From Girardia tigrina (Eukaryota): a stretch of 53,441 nt of DNA. The first letter of the stretch is position 1. Each line of letters begins with the position of its first letter. Positions 6,369 through 53,441 of this stretch are shown here, piece by piece. Below the pieces are notes generated by a model that saw nothing but the letters and a program-made list of their open reading frames with translations, searched no databases and was not told the origin of the DNA. The DNA is taken from contig MQRK01178215.1 of the NCBI GenBank assembly GCA_001938485.1, positions 1 through 53,441 on the forward strand. The letters are read 5' to 3'. The translations under genes and the position numbers were made by a program.

Positions 6369-6712
6369 GAATCTCACATCCTATAAAGGTATTAAGCCCG
6401 AGGCTTTTTAGGAGGGCTGAGACGTTTATGGCTTCAACGGGCACTCCCCCAATGTTGGGATCCATGCCTTAGTTCCACCGGCGAACCGGCTTCACACTCG
6501 ATTGTAAGATCACTACTCCACTTCAATCATGACACTCAGGACGGAATGCGAAGACTAGCCCATACGGATCGCAAGTTCGTAGTTGCTACGATATTCTGTC
6601 GGCTCAGATATCGGCTAGCTTTTGGGCACTTTAGCCTAGAGACCGAGATCTCTAGTTTCTCAGGGATACTACGTTGAAGTATGCTCACTGGCAGCACAGA
6701 CGATCCCTTTCC
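6369..6712 (-). mobile_element. short non-autonomous retroelement (SINE/SIDE-like), copy A: 5' HDV-like ribozyme plus LINE-like 3' hairpin
   Basis: The first ~120 nt and last ~110 nt are highly similar to 47341-47752; it interrupts LINE RT coding sequence at the FKGKG codons. Confidence 0.8.
6623..6709 (-). ncRNA. HDV-like ribozyme (slightly decayed copy)
   Basis: P1 AGGGAT/ATCCCT, P2 TGAGCAT/GTGCCCA (1 mismatch), P3 ACT/AGT, L3 TCAACGT, P4 CTAGAGAT/GTCTCTAG, J4/2 GCTAAA. Confidence 0.65.
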
Positions 6713-9860: not shown

Positions 9861-12751
9861 TACTACCCAAATTAAATATGTATTCGGACACGTAAAATAA
9901 TTTTTATTAAAAATTTTAAATTATAAATAATATGTACTTATTTGTATTATAGGTGAATTAATTTGATATTTTACGATAATCTAAATACAATTCTAAAATT
10001 ATTTGAAGAAATCAAATAAAAAGTTAACTAATAAAAATTTTATTCGTATTTAAAAATTTGTTCTCAAATTCAAAAGAATTCGGACACTTAATAAAAATTA
10101 TAAAATAAATGTAGGCAATGAATTATTCTAAATTCAATATGGATTATTAGTAAAAACACATGTAGTTATAATTATTTAAATATTTCAGTCGATTAAATTT
10201 TCGTTATTTTTAAAATATGGTTCGAGGAAAAAAGATGCATACGGAAATGCGTGAGAAAATATTTGCCATGCATGTTAAAGGAAAATCAGTAAGGGAAATT
10301 TCAAGAATTTTAGAGGTAAGTAAATCGGCGGTGTTCGATAACATTAAAAAAGCTAAATACCGTCAGAATAACTCATCGCCAAAGAAATCTGGACGACCAA
10401 AGTTAACTTCCGCTACTGATAACCGGTGTTTGAAGAGGTTAATTCCTCAATATCGTCATGCTACTGTTCAAGAAATCAACGGGAAATGGAGTATGCAAAC
10501 ATGCATTTCTTCTTCTCCATTCACTTGTCTACGTCGAATACAGGAATTAAATTATTCATTCTACAAGATAAGATTTTATTAATGAAATTTATGCATTGCG
10601 TAACACTTTTTTAAGGCTAAAAAAAACCGTTTCTGTCACATATTCAAAAGTAAAAGAGATTTGAATGGGCTCTTAATCATAGTAAATGGAGCCAAAATGA
10701 TTGGAATAAAGTTATTTTTTCAGACGAAACTTCTTTTGAATTGTTTATGGGTGTAAATGGAAAATCGGTATTACGGCTTAGTACCGAGTCATTATTATCG
10801 GACTGTTTAAACCGAACTCTGAAATTTCAAGAAAGTGTAATGTATTACGGAAGCGAGCTGATATGGTCAAAGAATCTTACCAATTTGATTAAGCAACCTC
10901 GTAATTAATAAAATAAATAAAAAGAGATACTAACTATTGAACTATAATTATATATATAACAATCAACGGAAAGAGGTTGAGATCAGAAAAGACAGTTATT
11001 TGATCACACGAAGAATAGTATCACAAGAATGTAAAAAATGTCAATAATTTAAAACGGAGAAAAATAGCGGTAATTTTTAAGTCCAATTTCACGAGGAACT
11101 CTTGGATGTCACGTATCGACGTTTTGTCTCGGTCGGGAAATACACTTCTCCGCGGATTATTTTGGTTTGATTTGAAGTTGTGTAGGACAATACGAATTTA
11201 TGGCTCGGTATCGATTGTCTCCGTGCTCGAAAATAATCGAATGAATTAATTAATTCACTGAACGATGAAATCGGCGACGGATGATTAATTTGGTTAAGCA
11301 GAAATTGCCGTTTCAAGTTATCAGATCGGAATATATTATTGTATTTGTAATTAAATTAATTGTGATCGATTTTATCGATCATTTGAATTCATAATTTTGC
11401 CATAGGCAATTATGAATTAAATTATTATTTATTTACCGCGAGCATCGAGAGACGATCTATGTGCTGATTGATGTTTCGTGTTCTAATTGACTTGTCCCAC
11501 CTCACGCATCAATTGATTATAACAGAAATCGAAGCAAATCGCACTGACTATTAATGCGGGCGTTATTGGTAGAGGAACTAACTATTCATGGGCACATATC
11601 TCACATTTCATGAATTATATCACTTCTTATCAATTGAATAAATGTGCTTGCGTTTGATTTTCGATCACTTTCATTTTGTGACGATTATTTGTCTTGATTT
11701 TATTATTTTTTTGGTTGCAAATTTTATCAATTTCGTAAAAGAATAAAAAAATTCTTGTACCCTCTCTTCACTTTCGCAATGTATCTTCTTTATGTTCCTC
11801 TGATATACCAAACAACACAAAAAACATACAAAAGTAAAATAAAATAATAGTTATAAGTCACAAAACTGTCACCGGTCAGAAATAAAAAAAAATTATACAC
11901 ACACAAGGGATTATTTGAGATACAAAAATGACAAAAAAAACAAGTACAAGTTTTTTTAAAGAAATAAAAGAGTATAAATTCAGACTCAATTTTCCGTATG
12001 TACGTCGGTGTGAGATCAATGCCCGCAACATAATGATTTTGGGTTGTATGACAAGCAAAAGACTTGGCTGTCTTCACTTTATAGAGGGCACAATGAACTC
12101 TACAAAGTATACCGAGATATTAAGGGAAAGTCTCATCCCATCTATTACACAATATTTTGTCAATGGAGATTTCATTTTTCAACAAGATGGAGAATCTTGT
12201 CATACTTCTAAATTTACAAAAACTTGGATGATGAAAAATAATATGCCCTTCTCGACGTGGCTTTCAGGAAGCCCAGATTTAAGTCCTATAGAGAATGTTT
12301 GGGCAATTATGAAAAAGGAATTACGAAAAAAAGTCATAAAAATAAAATTAATTTGAAAAATAAAATTTTAGCAATATGGAATAGTTTTCCCATCGATAAA
12401 TGTCAGGATTTATACAATTCAATGAATAGAAGAGTGGAAGATGTCATAAAAGCAAAGGGCGATGTTACAAGATTTTAAATAGTAGGTGTCCGAATTCTTT
12501 TGAATTTGAGAACAAATTTTTAAATGCGAATAAAATTTTTTTTAGTTAACTTTTTATTTGATTTCTTCAAATTATTTTAGAGTTGTATTTAGATTATTGT
12601 GAAATATCAAATTAATTCATCTATAATACAAATATGTTCATATTATTTATAATTTAAAATTTTTAATAAAAATTATTTTACGTGTTTTAATAATAAATTT
12701 TTAATAAGAATTATTTTGCGTGTTTTAATACATATGAATTTTGGTAGTATA
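9861..12751 (+). mobile_element. Tc1-family (DD34E) transposon with ~230-bp TIRs, interrupted by a TG..CA-like insert
   Basis: 9861-10090 is inverted at 12485-12751; HTH ORF 10217-10582 (SGRPK), VIFSDET, FQQDG..CHTS, SPDLSPIENVW; probable decayed ~47-nt intron at ~10568-10614. Confidence 0.92.
10843..12030. mobile_element. 1188-bp solo-LTR-like insertion with 5-bp TSD TAATG
   Basis: TAATG at 10838-10842 and 12031-12035; ends TATTACGG...CCGCAACA; removing it rejoins the Tc1 ESVMIxGCM motif. Confidence 0.8.
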
Positions 12752-13889: not shown

Positions 13890-16571
13890 ATTCAGCAGCA
13901 TTTAATGAGTTGAAAGAATCTTTGACAATGGCGCTAGCCGAAGATCCAAACGGTCACCAATAAACCAGCGATGGATAATTGGGCATGAAGAAGAACTTAA
14001 ATTACTCATCAAAGATAAATGGCAAAAATGCAATGAGTTTGTAAAGTGTAGGAATAACACCAATTACTTAAAGTGGAAAGCAAGAAGGCTTTTTCTCCAG
14101 AAAATGATAAGAAAATGGAAGCGTAATAGGGTGCAAACACTAGGAGACCAAATTGAAGGGATCTTATCATTGAATGGAGAAGGTAAGCTAAAAGAACTGT
14201 TCATTGAATCACATGTCCTCTGCGACTTACAATCTAAAGAAAACACTCTGCGTACTCTTTCAACCCCAATAGGGAACTCTGTTTTGGTTGATCCCTTTAC
14301 CAGACTATTCAAGAAAGAAGAAAGGGAAACATTCCTATAGGGATGGATACAATAAGGGATAATTTGAATACATCACCAACAACAGAGGAAATAGAGGAAG
14401 CTATACAGCAGTTAAAGAGCGGAAGCGCCACAGGATCAGATGGACTGATCCCGGAGATCTACAAGTGGGGAGGAGTAAGTATACTCCCTCTACTAGGGGA
14501 GTGCTTCGAAAACATTTGGGAAGGAAACAAGGAATTCCCTGCTTCTTGTAGAGAGGCGAAGGTCGTAATACTCTTCAAGGGCAAAGGCTCCCGAAAGGAT
14601 CCAAGCAACTACCGAGGTATCTTTCTCTTAGATGTTGGTGGAAAGATTCTCACGAAAATTACAGTAAACCGCATCTTATCAATCTCTTGGGCAATCATCG
14701 ACAATTGGCAATTCGGATTCCGACCAGGCAAAGGGACTCAACAAGCTATCTGTATCTTATGGAAAATCCAGGAAGAAACTCGGTACAAGAATGTGCACAC
14801 CTTTTTCATATAAATTGACTTATATCCCTCTGGAGCCACTCTGGGATTGTTTAAAGTAACTAGGGATAAGAGGGAGAATTCTGGAAATCATTAAACTCTT
14901 CTATGAGGAATTCCAGGGTTTCATTAGAAATACTGCTTTTCCAATGGAGAAGAAAATGCATCAAGGTTGTGTTTTAGGACCACTCCTCATATCGTCCTTG
15001 ATACAGTAATAAAACGAGCAACGGACTCTCTGGAGGAGTTCAGAAGAAAATAGAAGAATGGATTTACTGGAGATTAATAGATTAACTTATGCGGACGAGC
15101 TTTGTCTTATCGACCTAGACTGGAATAATTTGATTCATAACTTGAACATTCTCAATAGAACATTCAAAGATTGCGGTCTAAAGATCAATACTAAGAAGAT
15201 TAAAGTTATGAACCTCAATGGAGATACCAGATTTCTCACTGCTGGGGATCAGCTTGAGGCAGGTATTGAGTGGGTTACAAATTTTAACTACTTATGATTC
15301 ACAATCTCTTCTGTCGGACAGGTTGAAGATGAAATACGAGAGAGGATAACCAAAGACATCTAAAAAGTAAAAAGTCTTAAACAGGTACTGAGGAGCCCAA
15401 AGTTAAGCATAAGGAACAAGAAGAAAATTATCCAGACTTGTATCTTCCCTGTAGTGGAACTTGCTTAGTGGAACTTTGTTACATTAATGAAAACTGGAGG
15501 ACTACAGAGAAGAGGATACAAAAACTACAGGACTTCAATAACCTATGTTCGAGAATGGTTATGTGAGTGAAGAAGACAAAAAGGATTCGGACGAAACTTA
15601 TCCACATAGGGCTACCACATTAAATGGATATAATTGCATGTAAATAACTCAAGTTCAATTGCAAAATGGACTCCACAAAGACGAACATACTTCAGAGACT
15701 TTGGAGAGCAACTTTACTAATAGGAAAGAAGATACCTGGAAGGAGCAAACAAATGATGAAAGAATGTCTCCGTGTCGATGTGAAATGGCTATTCGGCGAA
15801 GATGCTGATTACAATGAATTTGTACAGCACATTATACGCCGAGACCTCCCCCATTTTACAAAGCACATACATAACTGGACTCATTAGGAAAGGAATATCA
15901 TAAAGAACAGCAGCAAGTTTACCCAAACGTATCTGCCCGAGAAAGATGATAATTCAATACCCTAAAGAGGACTGCTTCAAAGAGTTTGCGGTAGCAAAGG
16001 AACTTAACAGCCACATGAAGAGGGATCACATAGAGAGAGGTGATCAGGAAGAACCGGGCGGAGCTAACACGTTTAAATACAACAAATGCAACAAAAGCTA
16101 TAAGACAAGAGGATGGCTAATAAGACATCTGAATAAGGATTACAGAGTAGACATGAACACAGAGGAAGAAAATAAAATTTAAGAAGCAATACAACGGAAG
16201 CAGATACACCACAAAACATACCAACTACCAATCTTTGGTTAGCGACAGAACGACTATCTCAATGGTGGTGGAGAAAACAATTAATCCCGAAAATACGCAC
16301 TTAACGTTTAGGACCACTGACTCAACAGCGAGGGTAGACTTCAAGTACCCCTTTCTCGGCTGTGCTAAGTCCAAAAATACAGTCAAAGGGATGCTCAATC
16401 ATTGTACCACAGTACATGATTGTCCGTTTGTAACAGGGAAGCCAAAGATATCTCGGAGACTGAAGCGATCCAACCCCGTAGGAGGCCAATCGAGGGCTAG
16501 CAGTCTTTAGTTTGGGTGGACCCTCTAAAGAGCCTAGTAGCTCAATACCATTTGAAGGAGATGGGAGGCCA
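13890..16571 (+). mobile_element. 5'-truncated RTE-like LINE: RT plus three C-terminal C2H2 zinc fingers, defined tail-less 3' end
   Basis: SATGSDG, NYRGIFLLDVGGK, QFGFRPGKGT, QGCVLGP, LTYADE, CxxxxC..H...H motifs at 15946-16510; 3' end AAAGAGCC..GCTCAATACCAT..GAGATGGGAGGCCA. Confidence 0.9.
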
Positions 16572-19329: not shown

Positions 19330-20550
19330 TGAATTTTAATTTCAACGATTTACTTTTTTTTCAAATTTATTTACAATTATTTTCCTAATGCATTGCAGCC
19401 TTTCAATAAAGAATTAAAATTATTTTCTTCTTTAAGAAGAAAAGAATTAGACATCAGTTTTTTGGAAACGTGCATCGAAGAGAGGATTATTTCATTGTTT
19501 ATATTAAAAATAAAATTTTAAGAGTGCTTGGAGAAGGTAGATGTTTGAGGAATTCATTAGCTTTCACTTTGGCTTCAATATTTCTTTAGAGTATTGAAGA
19601 TAAAATCGATTTATTTGCTGCTAAGACGCCGTTAGCGTATTAAAGCTTTGTTGATGGCATCTTGATTTTGAACAATAAGAATGATATATCTACATTTTAA
19701 ATTATATAAATTCTTTGCATTCAAATGTAAAGTTCACTATGGAGACCGAGAATAACAATAAATTATCATTTCTGGATTTGTTAATTGAGTGAAAGATTGG
19801 TTTTTATGAAACTGATATTTATTGAAAGAAAACTGATACACGATTGTAAACAACCCCGAATAGTTTTTGTGACTCTAAATATCATAGAAATATGATCAAA
19901 TGCCCGTTTTTTCGTTCATAAGCTCTTTCGTCTACATATAAGCGATGTGATGAAAGTCTTAATAAATTAACAAAATTATTATATGATAATGAATTTTCAA
20001 AATGAATTTTCAAAGAAACTATTGATAAACTAATTGAAAAAAGTAATAATAATAAACTTAAAAATTTTCAAGATCAAGATCAATCTTGTAACACTAATAA
20101 AAATAGTTAAGAAACTGGATATATTTTAAGCATGCCTTATTCAGAAGGTTTTAAAATATTTAAAAGTTCTATTTTAAAAGCAATAGATAATACAATAAAT
20201 TTAAAAACAATTTCCCGTATGTTTAGTAATTAATCTTCAACACTGTTGGCATTGTGTGCGGATCTCATTTACCAATATAAATGTAATGTCACATTCATTG
20301 GAGAGACTCTGCGTCATCTCTGTAAGAGAATCGAGAAGCACAGTCGTAAGGAAAGTAGAAATAATGTTGCTGGACATAGTAAATATTGTAAAGGGGACAT
20401 AAACATCCATAATTTTAAAATTCTGTGCACTCAATTTTATAATTATTGGTAGATAGTGACATGGGAAACGTTATATATAAGATTTTTGTATCCTAAAATT
20501 AATTTTCAAAATAAACTCTCAACAACTTTATTGAATATTTTAAAATGATG
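19330..20550 (+). mobile_element. Penelope-like element remnant (RT C-terminus plus uninterrupted GIY-YIG)
   Basis: ETENNNKLSFLDL, RKxTDT, LSMPYSEG, LIYQYKC..TFIGETLRHL..RIEKH, ETLYI...PKIN. Confidence 0.85.
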
Positions 20551-23145: not shown

Positions 23146-24259
23146 AATGAAAGGCAAAGAAAAACGAAAAAACTTTTGAATTACTCTAGTACATATAAAA
23201 TTAAATTTTAAAATTAAAAAATTAATAATTGATACAGCTATTAATTGTATAACTTACCAACTAATATTAAAAAAATTTTTAATGATTCTGGATTGCTGAT
23301 TGTCGTCATTTAACGTACTACGAACCTATTTACAGAAAGTTTTAAAAAAAAGAAAGTTAAAATTTTGAAAACTTAATGTAATTAATGATCTGACAAAATT
23401 AAATTTTATGAAATAATAAGTAAGCTAAATTTTAAATTTTGATAATTTCTAAAAAGTTGACAATCAAAAATTATCAAATAATAAAATTCAGATATTTTTA
23501 ACGAAGTTAACTGAAATAAATTTCCAGGATTAAAAATTAAATTTATTTCTAAAAAACAAACTTAAAAATAGTTTTGATAAAATAGTTAAATAAAAAGCGT
23601 AAACATATTAACTCAATTCAAAAATTTCAAAATTAAGAAATGAAGAAAATTTGTTTGAATAATCAGAATTTAAAATCAGAAAATAAAAATATTATTTCAC
23701 CAACTAAAATGCAGACTTATGATTGATATTCCGCGAGCAGTCACTGAGACAACTTCTATTGTTGTAATTATAAATTTTGTAAAAATAATTGATCAGTGTT
23801 GTCAACAATTTATTAGCTTGATACATAAGAAATGTCGTTTTTAAACCGTAAACTTTAAATGAACATAACTTTCTTTAATCAATTAACTTTATTAGTCAAA
23901 ATAAAACCATTACAATTAACACACTTATGAGGGGTTAGTGTAAATTTTCAATTCGCTGAATAAGTTAATGTTTTAATTTTAAAATTTTGCAAAAATTAAA
24001 TAATAAAAACAGAGTTTCAAATCAAAAAATTTTTAAGTTGATATATTTCAGTTGGCAGTTTTAATATAAAAATTTTAAAAGAAATAATACAATAAATAAA
24101 AGTTTATGCGTAAATTTATATATCAAGCTGCTACAAAAGTTTTTTTACGAAATTGAATAGTTTTCTACAAATTAATTTTAAAATTAGATGTTATATAAAT
24201 GTAAAAAATTACTTTTATTTTGTTTAGAATATTTTTTTAAAAAAAATACAGAATAATAA

Positions 24260-24649
24260 ATATCACCATTTTAATTTTAAATTTTTATTGGAAAACATGT
24301 TTCGCCCCTTTTGTGGCATCTTCAGTTCTGTATTTAATTAGAAACTAATTGTTTATATAGAAAGATGACCCTTACGTCACAGTATGTTACATCAAAATAC
24401 ACTAATATGATTGGACGAATTACTTAGCACATTTAGACTAGGTTTAAAAAACTTTATCAAGAGTGCTTCAGTAATTGTCCTTTCATTATTGAGATCAAAG
24501 TTACTAATCAAAACCGGAAAATCATTATCAAATACCCTCCTTTGAGTTCCATGACATTTCACTATGTGGTCCAAAATTGAGCTTTTTCTACTTGATTGGG
24601 TATGTTTTGCAATTCTAGTAAGGAGGTGACGATTTGTCTCTCCAATGTG
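24260..24649 (-). mobile_element. Penelope-like 3' end (second half of GIY-YIG plus pLTR)
   Basis: HIGETNRHLLTRIAKH...LDH...EALLIK..KPSLN followed by a hammerhead motif. Confidence 0.85.
24289..24330 (-). ncRNA. minimal type I hammerhead ribozyme of Penelope pLTR
   Basis: GAA-CTGAAGA-TGCC(acaaaagg)GGC-GAAA-CATG-TT-TTC; palindromic stem III ACATGT as known for PLE hammerheads. Confidence 0.7.
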
Positions 24650-25815
24650 GACCTTCCATCTCTGTAATGGTATTGAGCCTAAGGCTCTTTAGAGAGTCCA
24701 CTTAACTAAAGTCCTTAAGGGCCCCCGATAGGCCTCCTACGGGGTCAGTGGCCTTCCGTCCTTGAGCAGTCGGCTTGCCAGTAACGAACGACCAACCATG
24801 GAACTTTGTACCATGGCCGTACATGTCGTTGGCTGTTACGGTGGACGCGTAACAACCGCGAAATGGGCACTTGAATTGTCATCTTGCAGCCTTGTAATCG
24901 GCTGGCAGTCGGTATTGTAGGTGCGTCTCTTCGGCATCGTAGTTCGGCTGTATCCTCGGCATAATCACAGTTGCGTCCGGCAACTGAGGATTAAATTGGT
25001 TTGATGTCGGCTCTTCCTCGTTCTCTTCTTCTGAGTTTTCTTCTCTCTGGGCGTTGGATGTTGGCGCTTCTTGATGATTCTTCTGAATATGAATCCTTAG
25101 GAAACCAGTGGTCTTGCATTCCCTCGGACAGTGTTGATATTGATATTTTCCTTTCTTCTGACGTGGCTGGGCTTCCTTCTCTCTCTTCTTCCGCGGGATT
25201 GGCTCTGCTCCTTTGTGATCTCTTCTGAGATACCTGTTTAACTCCTTCACTTCCGCATATTGTTTGTAACAGGCATCCATCGGGCAGCTGTGTTCTTTCA
25301 GACGAGGTAGCACCAGTCTTAGTGTTTGCTCGTCCCCGCTTCTTTGGATTCNNNNNNNNNNNNNNNNNNNNNNNNNNNNNNNNNNNNNNNNNNNNNNNNN
25401 NNNNNNNNNNNNNNNNNNNNNNNNNNNNNNNNNNNNNNNNNNNNNNNNNNNNNNNNNNNNNNNNNNNNNNNNNNNNNNNATGTTGCTTTCTCCGACCGCT
25501 GATCTTCTTTCCTCCGATGAGTTCGCATCCACTGATCTGCTTGACGTTCTCCGGGCATTCTCCTAAATCGACCTTGGTATTGTGTACGATTCTTCTCCTC
25601 GCGATGATGTCCATTGGGCTTTGCAGTCCAATTGATATCTCATCCATCCTGATCCTTTCGGCATTCGAAATCCCCAAAGTTCGCTGAATACATAGATTGT
25701 GAAATGCTTTTAGCTTTTTCACGTGTACTTCATTTGTCCTCCAATTTTCACAGCTGTAGTAAACCACAGGGAATACACAGCTGCTAATTATGTTCTTCTT
25801 ATTCTGGAAAGACCA
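24650..25815 (-). mobile_element. 3' part of RTE-like zinc-finger LINE (5' truncated)
   Basis: SCVFPVVYYSCENW, CPMDAC..HxxxH-type fingers, CQHC...HIQKNH, HGWSFVTGKP; same 3' hairpin/AATACC end as 16.5 kb. Confidence 0.88.
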
Positions 25816-25857
25816 TTTGTTGTTTTTTTAATGATGTTATTTAAATATTTTTTATTA

Positions 25858-26679
25858 CAGGGTGCGGCAGCTATTTGAGAACAAAATGACATAAAGTTCA
25901 AAAAATGAATATACAACAGAAAAATAACATTTATTACAATTTAAAATTTTACATATATTAACACGNNNNNNNNNNNNNNNNNNNNNNNNNNNNNNNNNNN
26001 NNNNNNNNNNNNNNNNNNNNNNNNNNNNNNNNNNNNNNNNNNNNNNNNNNNNNNNNNNNNNNNNNNNNNNNNNNNNNNNNNNNNNNNNNNNNNNNNNNNN
26101 NNNNNNNNNNNNNNNNNNNNNNNNNNNNNNNNNNNNNNNNNNNNNNNNNNNNNNNNNNNNNNNNNNNNNNNNNNNNNNNNNNNNNNNNNNNNNNNNNNNN
26201 NNNNNNNNNNNNNNNNNNNNNNNNNNNNNNNNNNNNNNNNNNNNNNNNNNNNNNNNNNNNNNNNNNNNNNNNNNNNNNNNNNNNNNNNNNNNNNNNNNNN
26301 NNNNNNNNNNNNNNNNNNNNNNNNNNNNNNNNNNNNNNNNNNNNNNNNNNNNNNNNNNNNNNNNNNNNNNNNNNNNNNNNNNNNNNNNNNNNNNNNNNNN
26401 NNNNNNNNNNNNNNNNNNNNNNNNNNNNNNNNNNNNNNNNNNNNNNNNNNNNNNNNNNNNNNNNNNNNNNNNNNNNNNNNNNNNNNNNNNNNNNNNNNNN
26501 NNNNNNNNNNNNNNNNNNNNNNNNNNNNNNNNNNNNNNNNNNNNNNNNNNNNNNNNNNNNNNNNCATTCGTAAGAGTAGCTTCTGCCATGTCTACCAGCA
26601 AAAATAAAATTATGTAATTATAACACACAAAAAGATATGGTGTCTATATTACGTGTTCTCAAATAGCTGCCGTACCCTG
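25858..26679 (-). mobile_element. Tc1/mariner-superfamily element (interior is an N gap)
   Basis: TA-flanked 26-bp TIRs cagggtgcggcagctatttgagaaca / tgttctcaaatagctgccgtaccctg; ORF start MAEATLTN. Confidence 0.85.
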
Positions 26680-26702
26680 TACAACCATATGGTTATTAAA
26701 AG

Positions 26703-26753
26703 TGGCGAAACATGTTTTCCAATAGAAATTTAAAATTAAAATGGTGTTATTTG
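26703..26753 (+). repeat. inverted partial copy of the Penelope pLTR at ~24260-24306
   Basis: ggcgaaacatgttttccaata.aaatttaaaattaaaatggtg.tattt is nearly identical to the reverse complement of ~24260-24306. Confidence 0.75.
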
Positions 26754-27199
26754 TTTTTAATTAATAAATTACCATTTAAAGAAATTTAAAGAATTTAAAG
26801 ATTTAAAGAAATTAAGTAATAAATATTTTTAAAATTTTATAAGTTGATTGCATTTTATTTAAATGGAAAAATTAATTTTATAGGTAATAAAATTTTTAAA
26901 AGCATTCTAAAAAATTAAAAAGAAAATTTCAAAAATATGTTATCGAATATAATAACTTATTTTTAAAGTTTTTACACGTTCATTTGATTTTATTTAATGG
27001 AATAAATTAATTTTATTTGTCATATAATTTTTAAAAATGCATTTTAAAAATAATAAAAATTTGAAATAGTAAAAAGTCAAAAATAAGTTATAGAATATAA
27101 TAAATTATTTTTAAAGTAAAATAAAATTTATGAGGCGAGTTGAAAATTTTAATTAACTAAAATTTGTTTGAAAATTAAAAGTTGTCATATTACTAAATT

Positions 27200-28414
27200 T
27201 TGGTGTTAAAAATGTATTCTGATATTGATGTTGCAACCACTTCTCACAACACTGTTGCCAACGGGTAACAATTTTTTTTATTCCAGTTTCATAAAATTCT
27301 GTAGAAGTCATCCAAGGGTCTTTCAGCAACTCCTTGGTTTCTGAAGCATTTTTCGCAAAGGAAATGGCTGAAATGTTTGAAAAGGTGATAGTTTGTAGGA
27401 GAAAGGTCTGGTAAGTACGGTGGATGAGGCAAAGTTTCATATCCCAGTTTGTTTAACTTCAACATGGTCTTTCTTGCAACATGTGGACGAGCGTTGTCAT
27501 GCAAAAGAATTAGCCCTTTTCTACTGAGTAATGTCGGCCGTTTATTTGTAGTTCTTGGTGCATTTTGTCAATTTGCTGACATTACTTTTCCGCTGTAATT
27601 GTTTTGTCTTGTTTTAGGAAGTTGTAATGGATTAAACCATGTGCGGATCACCAAGCAGTTACAAAAACATTTATTGGTGTAATTTTGGCTTTGGGAAAGG
27701 CTTTGGAGCCTTATTGAAATCCAACCTCTGAGCTGAACGTCGTCGGTTGTCGTAAATGATCCATTTTTCATCGCACGTTACAATTCAATCCAGAAACGGG
27801 TCACTTTGATTACGCAAAAGCAGAGTAGAACGCACGTTAAAACGACGATTTTTTTTTATTTTCGTTTAATTCATGCGGCACCCACTTGTCCAACTTTTTC
27901 CCTTTCCCGATTTTTTTCAGATGGCAAACAACTGTTGATTGGTAAACGTTGAGTTCTTGAGCGACTTCCTATGATTTTTTTATGCGAGTCGGCATTGATC
28001 AACTTCTTCAAATGGTCGTCGTCAACTTGTGATGGTCGACTACCGTGTTCTTCATCTTCAACGTTCTCGTTGCCCCCACGAAACTTCGAAAACTAACGTT
28101 GTACTGTTCGTAAATTAGTGGTATATTGTCCAAATACATTGTTAATATTCCGAGCCGTTTCTGTCGCTTTTCGACCTAGTTTGAAATCGTAGAATAAAAT
28201 TGTTCTCATTTCCTTTATTTTAACATTTCTAAAATAAAATAAATACACGTTAAATTAACAACAATAATGTCACACTTGGTATCAAAATATAGAGTAAAGT
28301 TTAAGCTTTAAAGTAAATTTAAATATGAATCTATTTATTAATGATTTTCTAAATATTTCAAACAATGAATATTAAATAGACTAAAAACGTCATTTCTTTT
28401 GCATCAACCTAATA
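27200..28414 (-). mobile_element. mariner (DD34D, SETMAR/cecropia-like) decayed element
   Basis: HDNARPH, LPHPPYLPDLSPTNYHLF, TCDEKWI; TIR tattaggttgatgcaaaagaaatg at the right end. Confidence 0.88.
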
Positions 28415-33050: not shown

Positions 33051-34081
33051 GTTTCTGGCTAGTCAAAATTTATGTATAGGTATATAGATAATGCTACCCC
33101 AACCTTTGGTTCGGTTTCAGTTTTTAACAGATTTATCTCAACAGTCCTCTTTATATTGTACATTACTTTTAATGGAAGTACGTATTCATATGTATTTAAT
33201 TTAATTGTTTTCTTTTAAGTCTAATGCAAGATAAAAAAGAAATAACAACAACATTTCCTTAAAAGCAATATTTTTATTAAAAGTCAGTAAATACATAGAA
33301 AAATAAATAAATATTAATAGTAAAGAAAGGAGACAATTAAGCTTGATAAAGGGCAAAATATTATCCGAAAATCCATTAGATATTATATTATCTGCTACAA
33401 CAGACAAATGTTTTTCTAAACTCAAATCAATATTAAATTATTTGAAAATTTTTTTATATATTTTATACTATAATTATGCTATGCTAACGAAATTGCTAGT
33501 TTGATTGTGACATTCCATGGAGGAGTATGTGACTTATTCGGTATGAAGGTCAGTGCAGCGGCCATTGTCGCAAATATGACAAGATCAACATCTCAACTGG
33601 ATTACTTACATTTAGGTGATTAGTTGTGACTTATTAACAAGGCAGTGGACTACCACAACCAGTTGTAGTGACATGTATATAATTAAATTTTGTATATATA
33701 AAAATATATAATTATAAATGATTATCAATCAAGTTATTTATTGATAAAATAATCCAACTGTACAAGATTACTCCGTCGAGATTACAGTCAATTTGGTGGC
33801 ACAATGGCGATGATTTGAATGGATGATTTATTTGAAAAAACAATATCAAACACAATCCCAATTAATTCCAAGAAGTCCAACAATCGTTCCTAATTCAAAA
33901 AAAACATCTCTCGAGCTCGATCAACAATTTAAATTTTAATACGCTATTATTCGATCCCCGCGTCTTCTGTCAATCTTGTCGCAAACATTATTTATCAATT
34001 TTTTTATGTTAGTTATTTATATTTTTAAAATAATTAATTGGGTGAACACTTTATAATATAGAACAAAATTATTTTGAAAGA

Positions 34082-34838
34082 ACCGTTGCTCGGCATTTGA
34101 AGCGAATTGGAAAGTCGAAAAAGCTCGATAAATGGGTGCCTCACCAATTGAAAGAAAGTAAAAAAAAATCGTTGTTTTGAGGTTTCTTCTGCACAAAAAG
34201 AACGACCCGTTTCACGATCAGATTGTGACGTGTGATGAGCAGTGGATTCTCTATAACAATCAAGAAGTTCTGCACAATGGTTGGACCGCGATGAGGCTCC
34301 TCACCACTTTTCGTAACCAAAAAAAAGGTTATAGTGACTGTTTGGTGATCACAGCTTTCTGAATATGGATGAAACAATCATTGCAGAGAAGTAATGCCAA
34401 CAAATCGACAAAATGCATCACGAGCTTCGACATATGTGCCAAAGATTGTTCAATATGAAGGGGCCAACTCTCCTCCATGAAAACGCCTGGTGACACATCC
34501 AAAACAATCCTACAAAAGCTAAACGAATTGGGTTACGAAACTCTGCCTCATCCACCCTACTCATCAGACCTTTCACCTACCGACTACCATTTTTTCAAGC
34601 ATTTGGACAACTTCCTCCAGGAAATATGCTTTAAAAGCAAGACTACGCAAAAGACGCCTTTAACACTTTTATCGCATATAGAACTCAGGATTTCTACACT
34701 CTGGCATCAATAAATTTGATTTTGGTTGGCAAAAACGTATTGATTATGATGGTTTTTATTTCGATTTATTCTGTGCTTTGTTACATTTGTTTAAAGTTTA
34801 GGTTCAAAAACCTACATTTTGTTTGCAACAACCTAATA
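34082..34838 (+). mobile_element. 5'-truncated mariner element
   Basis: WVPH, IVTCDEQWILY, LPHPPYSSDLSPTDYHFF; 3' TIR ...gtttgcaacaacctaata. Confidence 0.88.
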
Positions 34839-37804: not shown

Positions 37805-38569
37805 TTATTGCTTTAACCACGGCAACAGTAAACATTCTTTAGCCGACGGTCTGTCTGTTGGAAGCTTTGAAAAAGTCAATTTCAAAAAGGTTTCTAAATC
37901 AGGATTTTCGACAAAACACTTCTCTTTATAATTAACTTTTTTGTCATCGAATTTACCTTTCAGAAACGGAAACTTACCTGCAGTTGCTAAATTATAAAGG
38001 AGCACTCTGAATGACCAGATATCAACTTTCGGGGTGTGAACTTTCTTGTTAAAGACTTCCGGGGCCATGTATTGTTTTGACCCCATCTTTTTACAAACCG
38101 GTTTTTTTGCATCATAAATTGCTGCAAATTCGAAATCAATGATCATAACATCAAAATCTTCTTTGTCATTGACTTTTACAATGTTTGAAGGTTTCAAATC
38201 TCTGTGCATAATTGACAGAGAATGCATATGGTCAAGACCGCTAAGAATCTGAAATGAGATTCTTTTAGTTTGGTTCATGGGGAATCTTGTGGCCAGACTG
38301 TGATTCAAATCTCCGTATTGATAAAAAGGTAGAAGGAAAATGGTGAACCTTCCAAATTGAATTTTTCCCAGAATTTTAATAATATATGGAGACTCTTTAC
38401 ATTTATTTAACATCCCATATTCGTCAAATATTATATTATCACTTACTTTTCCAATGTACCTTTCTTTATTACCATTGTTTTGAAAGACTTTTACCTTTTC
38501 GTTTACATTTTGCACAAATGTAATATTATTTTGTTTGAATATATTTTCAAAAATACATTTATCAATCAT
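37805..38569 (-). CDS. intronless divergent Ser/Thr protein kinase (CAMK-like)
   Basis: 254-aa ORF with HRDLKPSN, IIDFE, GSKQYMAPE, KVDIWS, RPSAKECL...W. Confidence 0.85.
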   Translation of the reverse strand: MIDKCIFENIFKQNNITFVQNVNEKVKVFQNNGNKERYIGKVSDNIIFDEYGMLNKCKESPYIIKILGKIQFGRFTIFLLPFYQYGDLNHSLATRFPMNQTKRISFQILSGLDHMHSLSIMHRDLKPSNIVKVNDKEDFDVMIIDFEFAAIYDAKKPVCKKMGSKQYMAPEVFNKKVHTPKVDIWSFRVLLYNLATAGKFPFLKGKFDDKKVNYKEKCFVENPDLETFLKLTFSKLPTDRPSAKECLLLPWLKQ

Positions 38570-38859
38570 TTTATAGAAACTTTAATTTTAGTGTTACAAT
38601 TTTGATATAATTATCAATAAAATGTAATTTAAATGGAAACATAAAAATCTTTAAAAACATATTTTTCAATTCTATTGGATAATAATAAACTCATAATATT
38701 AAAATTTTTGTTTTAACATTACTTTTTTAAATTAAAATTTGTTTGCTAAACCTTTTGATTGTCAGATATTTTATTGTTTGTTGTAAAAGAAACTTTAAAT
38801 GTAAAAGCCCCTGATCAAATGAACTGTGTCTGAAAAGCTGACAGAAGTGATTGAATAAA

Positions 38860-46692: not shown

Positions 46693-47340
46693 TATGTTTT
46701 ATATACAGATATAAAATATATTTCAAATATTTTTAATAAAATGAATTTTTAAAAAATTAAAGTTTAATAAAATAGTTAGCGAATTATGTTTTAAAAAAAT
46801 TAAACAGATTAGTTTTAAAATATTTTTTAAGTTGGTAAAAACTAAAAAGACATCATCTACATATCTCTTGTACGACCAAGGTTTTTCTACAAGAGATATG
46901 TAGATGATGTATTTTTGGTTTTCAGAAGTCAATCCCTCATTGAACCATTCCTAACATTCATGAATGGTATTCATCCTAATATTAAATTTATCACAGAATT
47001 GGAAGTAGATAAAAACTTCCTTTTCTGGACATTCTTGTCACTAGGATGAATGGAGGCTATAAAACTGAATTATTCAGAAAGGCAACAGATACAGGTCTTT
47101 ACACAACACCACAGAGTTTTTGTGAGGTAAAATACAGAGAGGGCATGATCAAAGGGCTTGTTCACAGAGTTTGGAATTTGTCGACCAATCTTGAAATTGC
47201 TAATCAGGGTTTAAATATTTTTAGAAAGCGCTTGAGGAACAATATGTATACAAACAAGCAAATAGAACACAACATTAGGGTAACATTAGACAAATTATGT
47301 ACAGATGCACGAGTTAAGAAACAATTAAAAGAAGAATATC

Positions 47341-47752
47341 GAAAGGGATCGTCTGTGCTGCCAGTGGGCATACTTCTACGTAGTATCCCTGAGAAACTAG
47401 AGATCTCGGTCTCTAGGCTAAAATGCCCAAATGCTAGCCGATTATTGCGGAACAGCCGGCAATGTATCGTATTCAGGAATTGGCCAGCAATCCATTCACT
47501 AGGCTACGCTTTATAATCTGGGTGTGTAGGCTGTGGGGAGTAGTGACCCCGCTGTCGGTGGTTGGATTGCATCTTAATGATCTGGGATGAATCAATCCCG
47601 GTGAAGGGGGTTGTAATGACGTCGTTGCATTTTCGAACAGGCGGAACTAAGGCATGGATCCCAACATTGGGGGAGTGCCCGTTGAGAACCATCAGCGTCC
47701 CAGGCCTCCTAAAAAGCCTCAGGCTTAATACCTTTAAAGGATTAGAGGTGCA
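47341..47752 (+). mobile_element. short non-autonomous retroelement, copy B (HDV-like ribozyme plus LINE-like 3' end)
   Basis: GC-rich block replacing the PLE RT-to-YIG linker; homologous to 6369-6712 at both ends. Confidence 0.82.
47343..47429 (+). ncRNA. HDV-like self-cleaving ribozyme
   Basis: P1 AGGGAT/ATCCCT; P2 TGGGCAT/ATGCCCA; P3 ACT/AGT; L3 TCTACGT; P1.1 CT/AG; P4 CTAGAGAT/GTCTCTAG; J4/2 GCTAAA with the catalytic C. Confidence 0.75.
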
Positions 47753-48154
47753 CATTGGAGATACAAATCGTCATCTCAAAACCCGGATTAGCGAGCACTC
47801 GCAAATGAGTCGATCGAGTAAGGTTCTTGATCATTGGTTATGTTGTAAGGATAGAACCTCATCCATTTCAAAAGATGAATTTTCTGTTCTACAAAAGGGT
47901 TTTGATTCACATTTCGAACGACAGTTTTATGAATCTCTACTAATAAGACACTACAACCCATCAATTAACATTCAGAATTTAATAATTAAAATTTTTAATT
48001 AAAATATTTTTGCCATTATTACCCAATAATACTTTAATAAATTATAATATATTTAAAAAATTATTCTATTTAAACTTAATATACCTTTTAAAATTATATT
48101 ATTAAGAACAATTAAAATATTGTACAACTCAAATATTTAAATACTAAATTTCCG

Positions 48155-48207
48155 AAAATTGCTGATGATGATGTACGTAAACATCGAAATGAGTACTCTT
48201 AAAATTT
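48155..48207 (+). ncRNA. minimal hammerhead ribozyme motif in PLE pLTR (two mismatches near the core)
   Basis: CTGATGA-T-GATGT(acgtaa)ACATC-GAAA-T-GAGTACTC-TTA; palindromic stem III; flanks aaatt/aattt. Confidence 0.6.
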
Positions 48208-52116: not shown

Positions 52117-53329
52117 TATTGGGTTGAGGAATAAGTTCCCGCCGTTTTTTGAAAAATTAAAATTTTATTTTTTAACAAAAGAGTCACTACAAATCACAAA
52201 TGTAATCTCCGCCATTGTTCACGACTTCTTCCCAACGTTCAACGAGTTTATCAATGCCTCTTTGGTAGAAATCGCCCGGTCTTGACTGGAAGAATTCAGC
52301 ACACCAAACTTGCAGTTCTCCATCATTGTTGAACGAAGCACCACGCAAAGCGTTAGAAAGCGAACGGAAAAGATGAAAATCAGATAGAGCCATGTCAGGT
52401 GAATACGGAGGGTGCGGTAGCACTTCCCAACCAAGCGTTCGAATGGCTTGTTTTGTCATTCTGGCAATATGAGGACGTGCATTGTCGTGTTGCAAAATAA
52501 CACCATGTTGTCGATTCGGATGTTTTTGTCTTATAGCGGCGTTGAGTCTATGCAGCTGTTGAACATAAAGTTCTGCGTTCACTGCTTGGTTTCGAGGAAG
52601 CAATTCATAATGAATAATCCCTTCCCAACCCCACCAAACACATAGCATTGTCTTTCGTGGATGAAGATCCTGTTTTGCTCGCGGTGTCGATTGTTCTTCT
52701 CGGCTACCCCATTCTTTGCGCTGTTTCATGTTGAAGTATAGGCACCATTTTTCATCACCCGTTACAATTCGATAAAGAAATTGTGACCGTGAGTAGAGCG
52801 ATGACGGGCAAGCAAACTCGCCGAAATTGTGGATCGCTAGTTTTTGTTGTTTTCGGTCAAAAGATGTGGTACCCAAGCTCCCATTTTTTGAAGTTTTCCC
52901 ATTGATTTCAGGTGGTTCACGACAGATTTTTGATCACAATCCATTTGTTCCGCCAATTCTCGAGTGGTTTATCGCAAGTCTTCATGCAAAAGTTTGTTCA
53001 AACGCTCTTCATCGAATTCATTTGGTCGTCCTGAACGAGGTGCATCCTTGAGGTCAAAATTGCCAATTTTAAATTTTGCGAACCAATCACGAGCGGTTCT
53101 ATCAGCTTTAGCACCTTCTCCGTATACAGCACAAAGCTCTCGGGCAGCGTCTGCGGCTTTGGCGCCTCGATTATACGCAAACAATAGATGACGTCGGAAA
53201 TGCTCATTTTTGTCGACTTGATACTCCATTTCAATGGTCTAAAAATAGACAAAAATTAATCTGAATAAAAAAACAAAATACACCATTTTTTAGAGCAAAA
53301 CAATAGCTTTTAAATAACATATAACATTA
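52117..53329 (-). mobile_element. mariner (DD34D) element, frameshifted; 5' end interrupted by another Tc1/mariner element
   Basis: ORFs 52969-53229 (HTH, RSGRP) and 52187-52876 (TGDEKW, HDNARPH, YSPDMALSDFHLF); TIR tattgggttgaggaataagttccc. Confidence 0.93.
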
Positions 53330-53441
53330 CAGGGTGCGGCAGCTATTTGAGAACACGTAATATAGACACCATATCTTTTTGTGTGTTATAATTACATAAT
53401 TTTATTTTTGCTGGTAGACATGGCAGAAGCTACTCTTACGA
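53330..53441 (+). mobile_element. left end of a second copy of the 25858-26679 Tc1/mariner element
   Basis: Near-identical to the reverse complement of 26568-26679, preceded by TA. Confidence 0.92.

Follow-up and report, generated by a model that had tools for sequence, protein, structure and literature searches.

Two retroelement ends in one stretch of Girardia tigrina DNA (53,441 nt, here called the window) meet the same nucleotide of two different Penelope endonuclease genes, which raises the question of whether a LINE and a short partner insert site-specifically into another retrotransposon. The answer is that an RTE-like LINE/SINE pair does prefer the YIG codon, genome-wide and without exclusivity, mainly in one Penelope family and with a measurable split signature. 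The explanation to which we give about three chances in four is that an RTE-like LINE and a ribozyme-headed SINE insert at the T^AC of YIG, likely by TPRT, with a protein reading a split DNA signature that family P1 fits best. The Penelope families are named after window copies: P1 is the 47752 type, P2 the 24648 type and P3 the 20295 type (Table 1).

Table 1. Penelope pieces, LINE and SINE copies and neighbouring features in the 53,441-nt window.
Feature	Position	Strand	Description
Off-target SINE copy	6369..6709	-	12-bp target duplication; empty site has T^A and GTG at -14..-12
3' fragment of another LINE subfamily, off target	16340..16571	+	71% to main subfamily
Penelope P3 endonuclease, decayed, uninterrupted	20245..20540	+	Without target signature
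Penelope P2 3' piece	24251..24648	-	GIY-YIG C-terminal half from split Tyr codon; stop 24392; 3' UTR
5'-truncated LINE	24649..25827	-	RT thumb and three C2H2 fingers; ~94% to other copies
TA-flanked element with terminal inverted repeats	25858..26679		Between LINE and inverted Penelope tail; unrelated; mostly N gap
Inverted P2 terminus copy	26698..26758	+	61 nt, 92%; arrangement as at Penelope 5' ends
Penelope P1 RT/thumb piece	46838..47339	+	Upstream of SINE; final ~210 nt before site deleted
SINE partner, full-length	47343..47751	+	5' HDV-like fold; LINE-like 3' hairpins
Penelope P1 3' piece	47752..48189	+	GIY-YIG C-terminal half; stop 48002; 3' UTR; GIY-YIG E=0.019, weak (half domain)

Both junctions read as an earlier note had quoted them: ACATTGGAGA begins at 24648 on the minus strand and at 47752 on the plus strand, and the frame that follows each reads HIG(E/D)T.RH...R..EH/KH, the second half of the GIY-YIG domain. 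The two downstream endonuclease pieces belong to different families, as stated there (130 matches in 239 nt). The junction nucleotide is indeed shared, and its exact position needs correcting by one base to the 3' side; because the empty site reads T^AC, the C of 'CAC' is an element base. The note also held that upstream Penelope sequence is missing and that target duplications (TSDs) are absent. The first statement fails at 47752, where the RT/thumb region precedes a deletion, and elsewhere in the genome, where upstream sequence is usually present; the second holds for these two loci and fails for others, at which TSDs are found. The LINE that ends at 24649 has a frameshift in its finger region and an N gap, and its 3' UTR terminus forms two hairpins before ...GGTCC. 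It is truncated at 25827, and behind it lie the element with terminal inverted repeats, an assembly gap and the inverted Penelope tail. The Penelope copy at 20295 is uninterrupted, as described; it has TTC in place of TAC and no GTG at -14..-12, and is no counter-example because the target signature is absent. The 3' ends at 6369 and ~16571 do sit in other DNA.

The target is a Penelope-like element, since four of four empty copies (the intact P2 copies among the matches) pass the Pfam GIY-YIG cut-off and a recorded protein with 90% identity to P2 (P0303) combines RVT_1 and GIY-YIG. Pfam gave no match for the 109-aa upstream Penelope piece. A minimal motif at ~24300-24330 in the P2 3' piece, matched by eye to the hammerhead consensus, and another at ~48162-48189 in the P1 3' piece are presumably hammerhead-like; an Rfam scan of the window returned three weak, unrelated matches and no HDV or hammerhead family. 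One end of the TA-flanked element recurs at ~53307-53441, and these two window copies probably represent a Tc1/mariner-type MITE.

Genome-wide searches covered the 1.43-Gb assembly in 255,254 contigs. An element end followed by CACATTGGAGA occurs 241 times, versus 0 for the reversed pattern. Searches for 3' ends that were blind to the target returned 1280 and 1248 matches with two LINE tail patterns and 314 with the SINE pattern; by eye, 33 of the 100 first-listed of the 1280 and 23 of the 100 first-listed of the 1248 run straight into the Penelope YIG. Among 80 LINE loci chosen by protein similarity from 162 matches, 69 3' ends were scored: 30 lie in Penelope, 7 at the site with other sequence and 32 elsewhere. 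Element heads agree, with Penelope in front of full-length LINEs in 50 of the 100 first-listed of 356 (by eye) and 14 of 30 (by script), and in front of SINEs in 36 of the 100 first-listed of 714 (by eye) and 14 plus 4 tandem of 31 (by script). From the side of the target, an element end precedes 43 of the 100 first-listed of 1409 P1/P2-type sites (by eye). Pattern counts are exact-match lower bounds that include duplicate contigs, and for the latter reason are not event counts; listed matches come from the lowest-numbered contigs. Enrichment of YIG flanks, without which the earlier idea would fall, was thus looked for genome-wide and is strong.

Occupancy differs sharply between target families. 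Exact patterns give 466 filled versus 854 empty sites for P1, a filled fraction of 35%. P3 is the commonest Penelope family (by eye, ~55 of 100 listed matches among 6275 empty sites), and 12 filled sites (of 13 matches) put its filled fraction below 1%. Targeting is therefore strongly family-specific, P1 standing far above P2 and P3, and it is not exclusive, involving about 10-50% of copies depending on the subfamily. On-target copies are scarce in one LINE subfamily, with 0 of 8 in a clade that has tree support and 3 of 37 when judged by eye; in another, a script puts 5 of 31 on target and inspection by eye 23 of 100. At 30 of 69 LINE 3' ends, 14 of 30 LINE heads and 14 of 31 SINE heads, Penelope exceeds the share of flanks, more than 20% for one repeat type, that PMC4494074 takes to mark target specificity; the low-targeting subfamily stays below it. 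A further 80 metagenome loci were kept apart from these junction scans; in the metagenome scan none of the 80 has a Penelope endonuclease nearby, and these relatives (22-38%) mostly lack the finger tail. Contigs from four public runs, which cannot show transcript ends and are weak evidence, were compared with the 5' junction: all contain LINE and empty-site ends, and one 81-nt contig bridges them. Separately, a repeated non-Penelope site ending ACCACAGGGAT carries LINE and SINE copies (C11259, C85641, C104687, C91501 and C77796; also run X11) and is possibly a secondary hotspot or a duplicated locus.

Off-target insertions also duplicate their target, by 9-15 bp in 52 of 54 cases, and their empty sites carry a signature of their own. 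Loci lacking both ends or with a TSD score below 8 were dropped (7 of 30 in the held-out set), and because each nick was placed at the nearest A, the A at +1 holds by construction. GTG stands exactly at -14..-12 in 19 of 31 sites (p about 1e-32 against the window frequency) and in 15 of 23 held-out sites, 34 of 54 in total; T occupies -1 in 48 of 54 and C occupies +2 in 39 of 54, with an A-rich spacer. The resulting signature, RGTG(T/A)-A-rich spacer-T^AC, is fitted by the window's own off-target SINE. In Penelope it begins at the final base of one codon, continues through TGT (the second CxxC cysteine) and three further codons, and ends with TAC, the Tyr codon of YIG. The earlier proposal that the catalytic YIG motif determines the target does not stand, as the signal is mostly upstream (GTG at -14..-12, A-rich spacer, T^AC) and not ATTGGAGA itself. 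With a matrix derived from these 54 sites alone, the main P1 site scores 16.6 of a possible 18.5 bits, higher than the best off-target site (15.3) and the best of 498,308 background positions (13.7); P2 scores about 11 and P3 about 10. Across 30 scored copies, the nine of P1 range over 10.8-17.3, those of P2 over 10.7-11.4 and those of P3 over 5.7-11.8, an order that agrees with occupancy.

It is unlikely that this fit is a coincidence, in which the LINE would have a loose split signature of RTE type without any past selection for Penelope, and thousands of suitable sites would simply be on offer in an abundant family. A split signature that lies one turn upstream of the TA nick is already known in RTEs (PMC13295347), at least half of the copies are off target, the low-targeting subfamily persists, and P1 spacers are A-rich, like the genome. 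However, no background or off-target site scores as high as the main P1 site, and spacers of off-target sites with the same core are nearer to P1 than background is (4.0 versus 2.7 of 10, p=6e-5), with no such likeness to the commonest P3 site (p=0.35). The matrix also predicts a Penelope share of 4-5%, against 36-50% observed for element heads. Because the prediction is about a tenth of the observation, either the matrix is incomplete or another factor adds to it: an off-target-only matrix with independent positions would under-rate the best site, and a further factor is possible.

One such factor could be an RNA guide, by which a LINE residing in Penelope is transcribed through into it and the transcript tail base-pairs with the nicked target. 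Penelope houses half of the full-length copies, targeting by other elements can be strengthened when target sequence is co-transcribed (PMC4494074), a few off-target 3' junctions have an extra AC/ACA absent from the target (L262, L278, L283), and a guide could account for the excess over the matrix. We nevertheless consider it very improbable. Off-target positions +3..+12 are unlike the Penelope site (3.3 versus 2.9 expected of 10; p 0.74-0.84; the P1 representative in one likeness comparison was an atypical copy); sequence downstream of +2 is thus irrelevant, which argues against a guide beyond a terminal AC. Both TSD copies also track variants of the target in L090, L266 and L267, so that the downstream copy is DNA-derived.

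Several lines of evidence bear on whether the insertions are separate events. First, copies that retain both flanks show Penelope ...CxxCxNSYIGE before the element and HIGET... after it, with target duplications of 8-14 bp, typically 11-13 bases from ACAT. They include full-length LINEs (L052, L065, L267), truncated LINEs (L057, L059, L060, L068, L266) and SINEs (L022, L079, L090, L096, L306). After 14 duplicates of 60 were dropped, the YIG site accounts for 15 of 46 distinct insertions with a detectable TSD. Second, by eye, Penelope sequence runs up to the site at the 5' end of 24 of 80 LINE loci; six of the 24 are full-length, and each of the other 18 has its own truncation point. The insertions are independent on the strength of these duplications and of the many truncation points. 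Third, elements are stacked at the site with a duplication between them (L002, L007, L012, L068), and P2, P3 and one further Penelope family are hit at the same base (L349, L277, L066, L295). Fourth, when 51 LINE 3' ends are placed on a tree, on/off status must change 13 times, against a shuffled mean of 17 (6 and 18 of 500 shuffles were as low); the labels are slightly clustered, and the star-like shape of the tree leaves it little power. The main group and one of the supported subfamilies contain on-target copies; a second supported subfamily has 0 of 8. The independent, site-specific and non-exclusive insertion proposed earlier is thereby upheld by enriched flanks, differing 5' breakpoints and mixed tree labels.

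One or a few ancestral LINE-Penelope chimeras, multiplied by 3' transduction, by the Penelope machinery or by segmental duplication, are the least probable source and largely refuted as the main cause. In favour of this origin, filled sites are mostly in one Penelope family, inverted Penelope pieces accompany a lack of upstream Penelope in some units (L246, L254, the window copy), and duplicate contigs exist. Against it, the 18 truncation points share a single site, the various LINE subfamilies and SINE variants all insert there, at least three Penelope families are hit, the TSDs are target-derived and on- and off-target copies intermingle on the LINE tree. A chimeric origin may hold for a minority of copies. 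Of the on-target 3' ends, about 14 have no Penelope upstream, some with inverted Penelope pieces, and may reflect deletions or a second round of copying by Penelope; the same machinery may have re-copied a minority of the units that combine a LINE with a Penelope tail, among them 24251-26758. Palindromic arrangements of a Penelope inverted duplicate, with or without a LINE, are also seen (L045; C59711, C7775, C12450).

The LINE is ~4 kb long, with an HDV-like head and one ORF that encodes an AP endonuclease (APE), an RT and three C2H2 fingers. A full-length copy (L065) measures 4055 nt including assembly gaps, and its frame opens 148 nt past the 5' end, leaving no room for a separate ORF1; in the Tx1 clade a separate ORF1 precedes the APE-RT. 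An intact 1145-aa version on record (P0001, 96%) carries Exo_endo_phos_2 and RVT_1 and belongs to a cluster with five near full-length members. The three C2H2 motifs are conserved in relatives at ~30% identity. In a FastTree phylogeny of 120 RT domains (midpoint root; profile-biased sample) the element falls in a group of 36 with support 93, and 34 of the 36 have two or more fingers; the ESM Atlas holds a similar cluster with RVT_1 at 100% and zf-C2H2 at 52%. Multi-finger RTE-like proteins with two or three C-terminal C2H2 motifs were recorded as P0003-P0006, P0019 and P0157-P0191. The nearest named matches of the LINE protein, CFDP2-named proteins and DUF6451 carriers, look RTE-like, and human L1 ORF2p scores lower (89 bits). 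Architecture and the names of these matches suggest that the LINE is RTE-like. The AlphaFold model has a mean pLDDT of 63.5, with the finger region (935-1081) under 50.

The first base of the LINE is G1 of an HDV-like double pseudoknot (18 heads, by descriptor), and the SINE, ~410 nt long, has a related 5' fold (58 heads). The descriptor was built for this analysis on the HDV architecture. Pairing left unconstrained by the descriptor reaches 6.7 of 7 in helix P1 and 5.8 of 6 in helix P2 of the SINE heads, with compensatory changes in helix P2; minimum-energy folding of the LINE head did not recover the pseudoknot (z 0.01). The two elements have 3' hairpins in common over ~45 nt with about 80% similarity, and the LINE terminus consists of hairpins and CCC-AC, with no poly(A) or microsatellite tail. 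SINE heads give no BLAST match to the main LINE head; because the head sequence differs and only the ~45-nt tail matches, the SINE is not a plain internal deletion of the LINE. One locus (L005, minus strand, from ~position 157 of the reverse complement) contains another LINE head, whose HDV-like sequence and APE start differ and which occupies the same duplicated site behind a LINE 3' end.

Starting from the established site, duplications, independence, signature and family ranking, known LINE biology suggests how insertion may proceed. A read-through transcript from the host would have its 5' end trimmed by the HDV-like ribozyme, and the LINE protein would bind the 3' hairpins common to both elements, mobilising the SINE in trans. 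The zinc fingers may hold GTG about one helical turn upstream, for which we see about even odds, as the APE alone could suffice. The APE would nick the bottom strand opposite T^A, the terminal AC of the RNA would anneal to the primer, and a second nick would follow ~12 nt downstream. Behind the element, the duplicated site would then retain no more than its downstream half, which later elements also use.

The pair can be compared with several known systems. Most target-specific families are RLE elements or belong to the Tx1 and R1 clades, and strong target specificity in APE-type LINEs is ascribed mainly to R1 and Tx1 (PMC4640811). In crocodilians, Tx1-Mar and SINEU reside in a Mariner, and Tx1-8_Crp and Tx1-4_AMi prefer LTR retrotransposons (PMC4494074); Tx1 (Tx1L of Xenopus) in Tx1d is cited in PMC6719617. 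Like Tx1-Mar and SINEU, the present pair combines an APE-type LINE with a SINE partner, and its preference for another transposable element is not exclusive. Unlike Tx1 systems, which hit DNA transposons or LTR elements (PMC4494074), it uses a catalytic-motif codon of Penelope; the LINE also differs from the Tx1 clade in its one ORF, HDV-like head, RTE-like RT and three C2H2 fingers, and the SINE head is ribozyme-like, whereas that of the Tx1-associated SINE is an snRNA.

RTE-clade LINEs such as Bov-B and plant RTEs have a Tn-TA insertion signature (PMC13295347), and HDV-like ribozymes occur in RTEs (PMC6765202). The present LINE has the single APE-RT ORF, a T^A nick preceded at about one helical turn by the split signature, a TSD that starts with A and the HDV-like head in common with them (PMC13295347, PMC6765202), but its upstream half is GTG and not a T run, and it ends in 3' hairpins and CCC-AC and not a microsatellite (PMC13295347). 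RTE-1 and other RTEs are described as dispersed integrators, with proteins under development for RNA-only gene insertion (PMC13708176); here, by contrast, up to half of the copies lie at one site of one repeat. The SINE resembles the SIDE-type elements described in PMC3414825, being short and non-coding with a 5' ribozyme and a LINE-type 3' end, and using the site of the LINE; an R1 hybrid among these has a 14-bp TSD. Their target is 28S rDNA, unlike the Penelope YIG codon, and the SINE head here differs from the LINE head, only the ~45-nt tail matching. In the freely available papers searched, no Penelope-targeting or target-specific RTE element was found.

A broader and more doubtful idea is that widespread, little-described RTE-like LINEs use their two or three C-terminal C2H2 fingers as a retargetable DNA-reading module, tuned here to the Cys and Tyr codons of the Penelope nuclease, with P3 escaping through its spacer. 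If true, the escape of P3 would make an arms race between two classes of retrotransposon traceable. LINE target specificity would gain a further origin in an RTE-like, single-ORF element with a defined split site, and hundreds of graded off-target sites make the specificity rule directly testable. A natural site-preferring RTE relative with intact ORFs on record (the P0001 cluster) shows how specificity may be added. The pair is also a countable case, as about a third of one retrotransposon's sites are occupied by another family. Harm to Penelope, which the earlier note had assumed in writing that the insertions disable these elements, is unproven because most of the hosts observed are fragments that were already 5'-truncated.

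Other features of the window concern different elements. A 213-nt inverted repeat (93%) at 9881-10093 and 12480-12692 encloses 2.4 kb that include a transposase-like frame near 10650-10900, probably a decayed DNA transposon. At 152-1355 all six frames are stop-free for more than 320 codons, likely an N gap like that at 25956-26564. A 258-codon frame on the minus strand at 37805-38581 contains a protein-kinase-like piece, and its match to the YIGK pattern is due to chance. Finally, several inverted repeats of 70-77% link 27339-27957 with 34060-34636 over ~7 kb, possibly the remains of an old, large inverted-repeat element.
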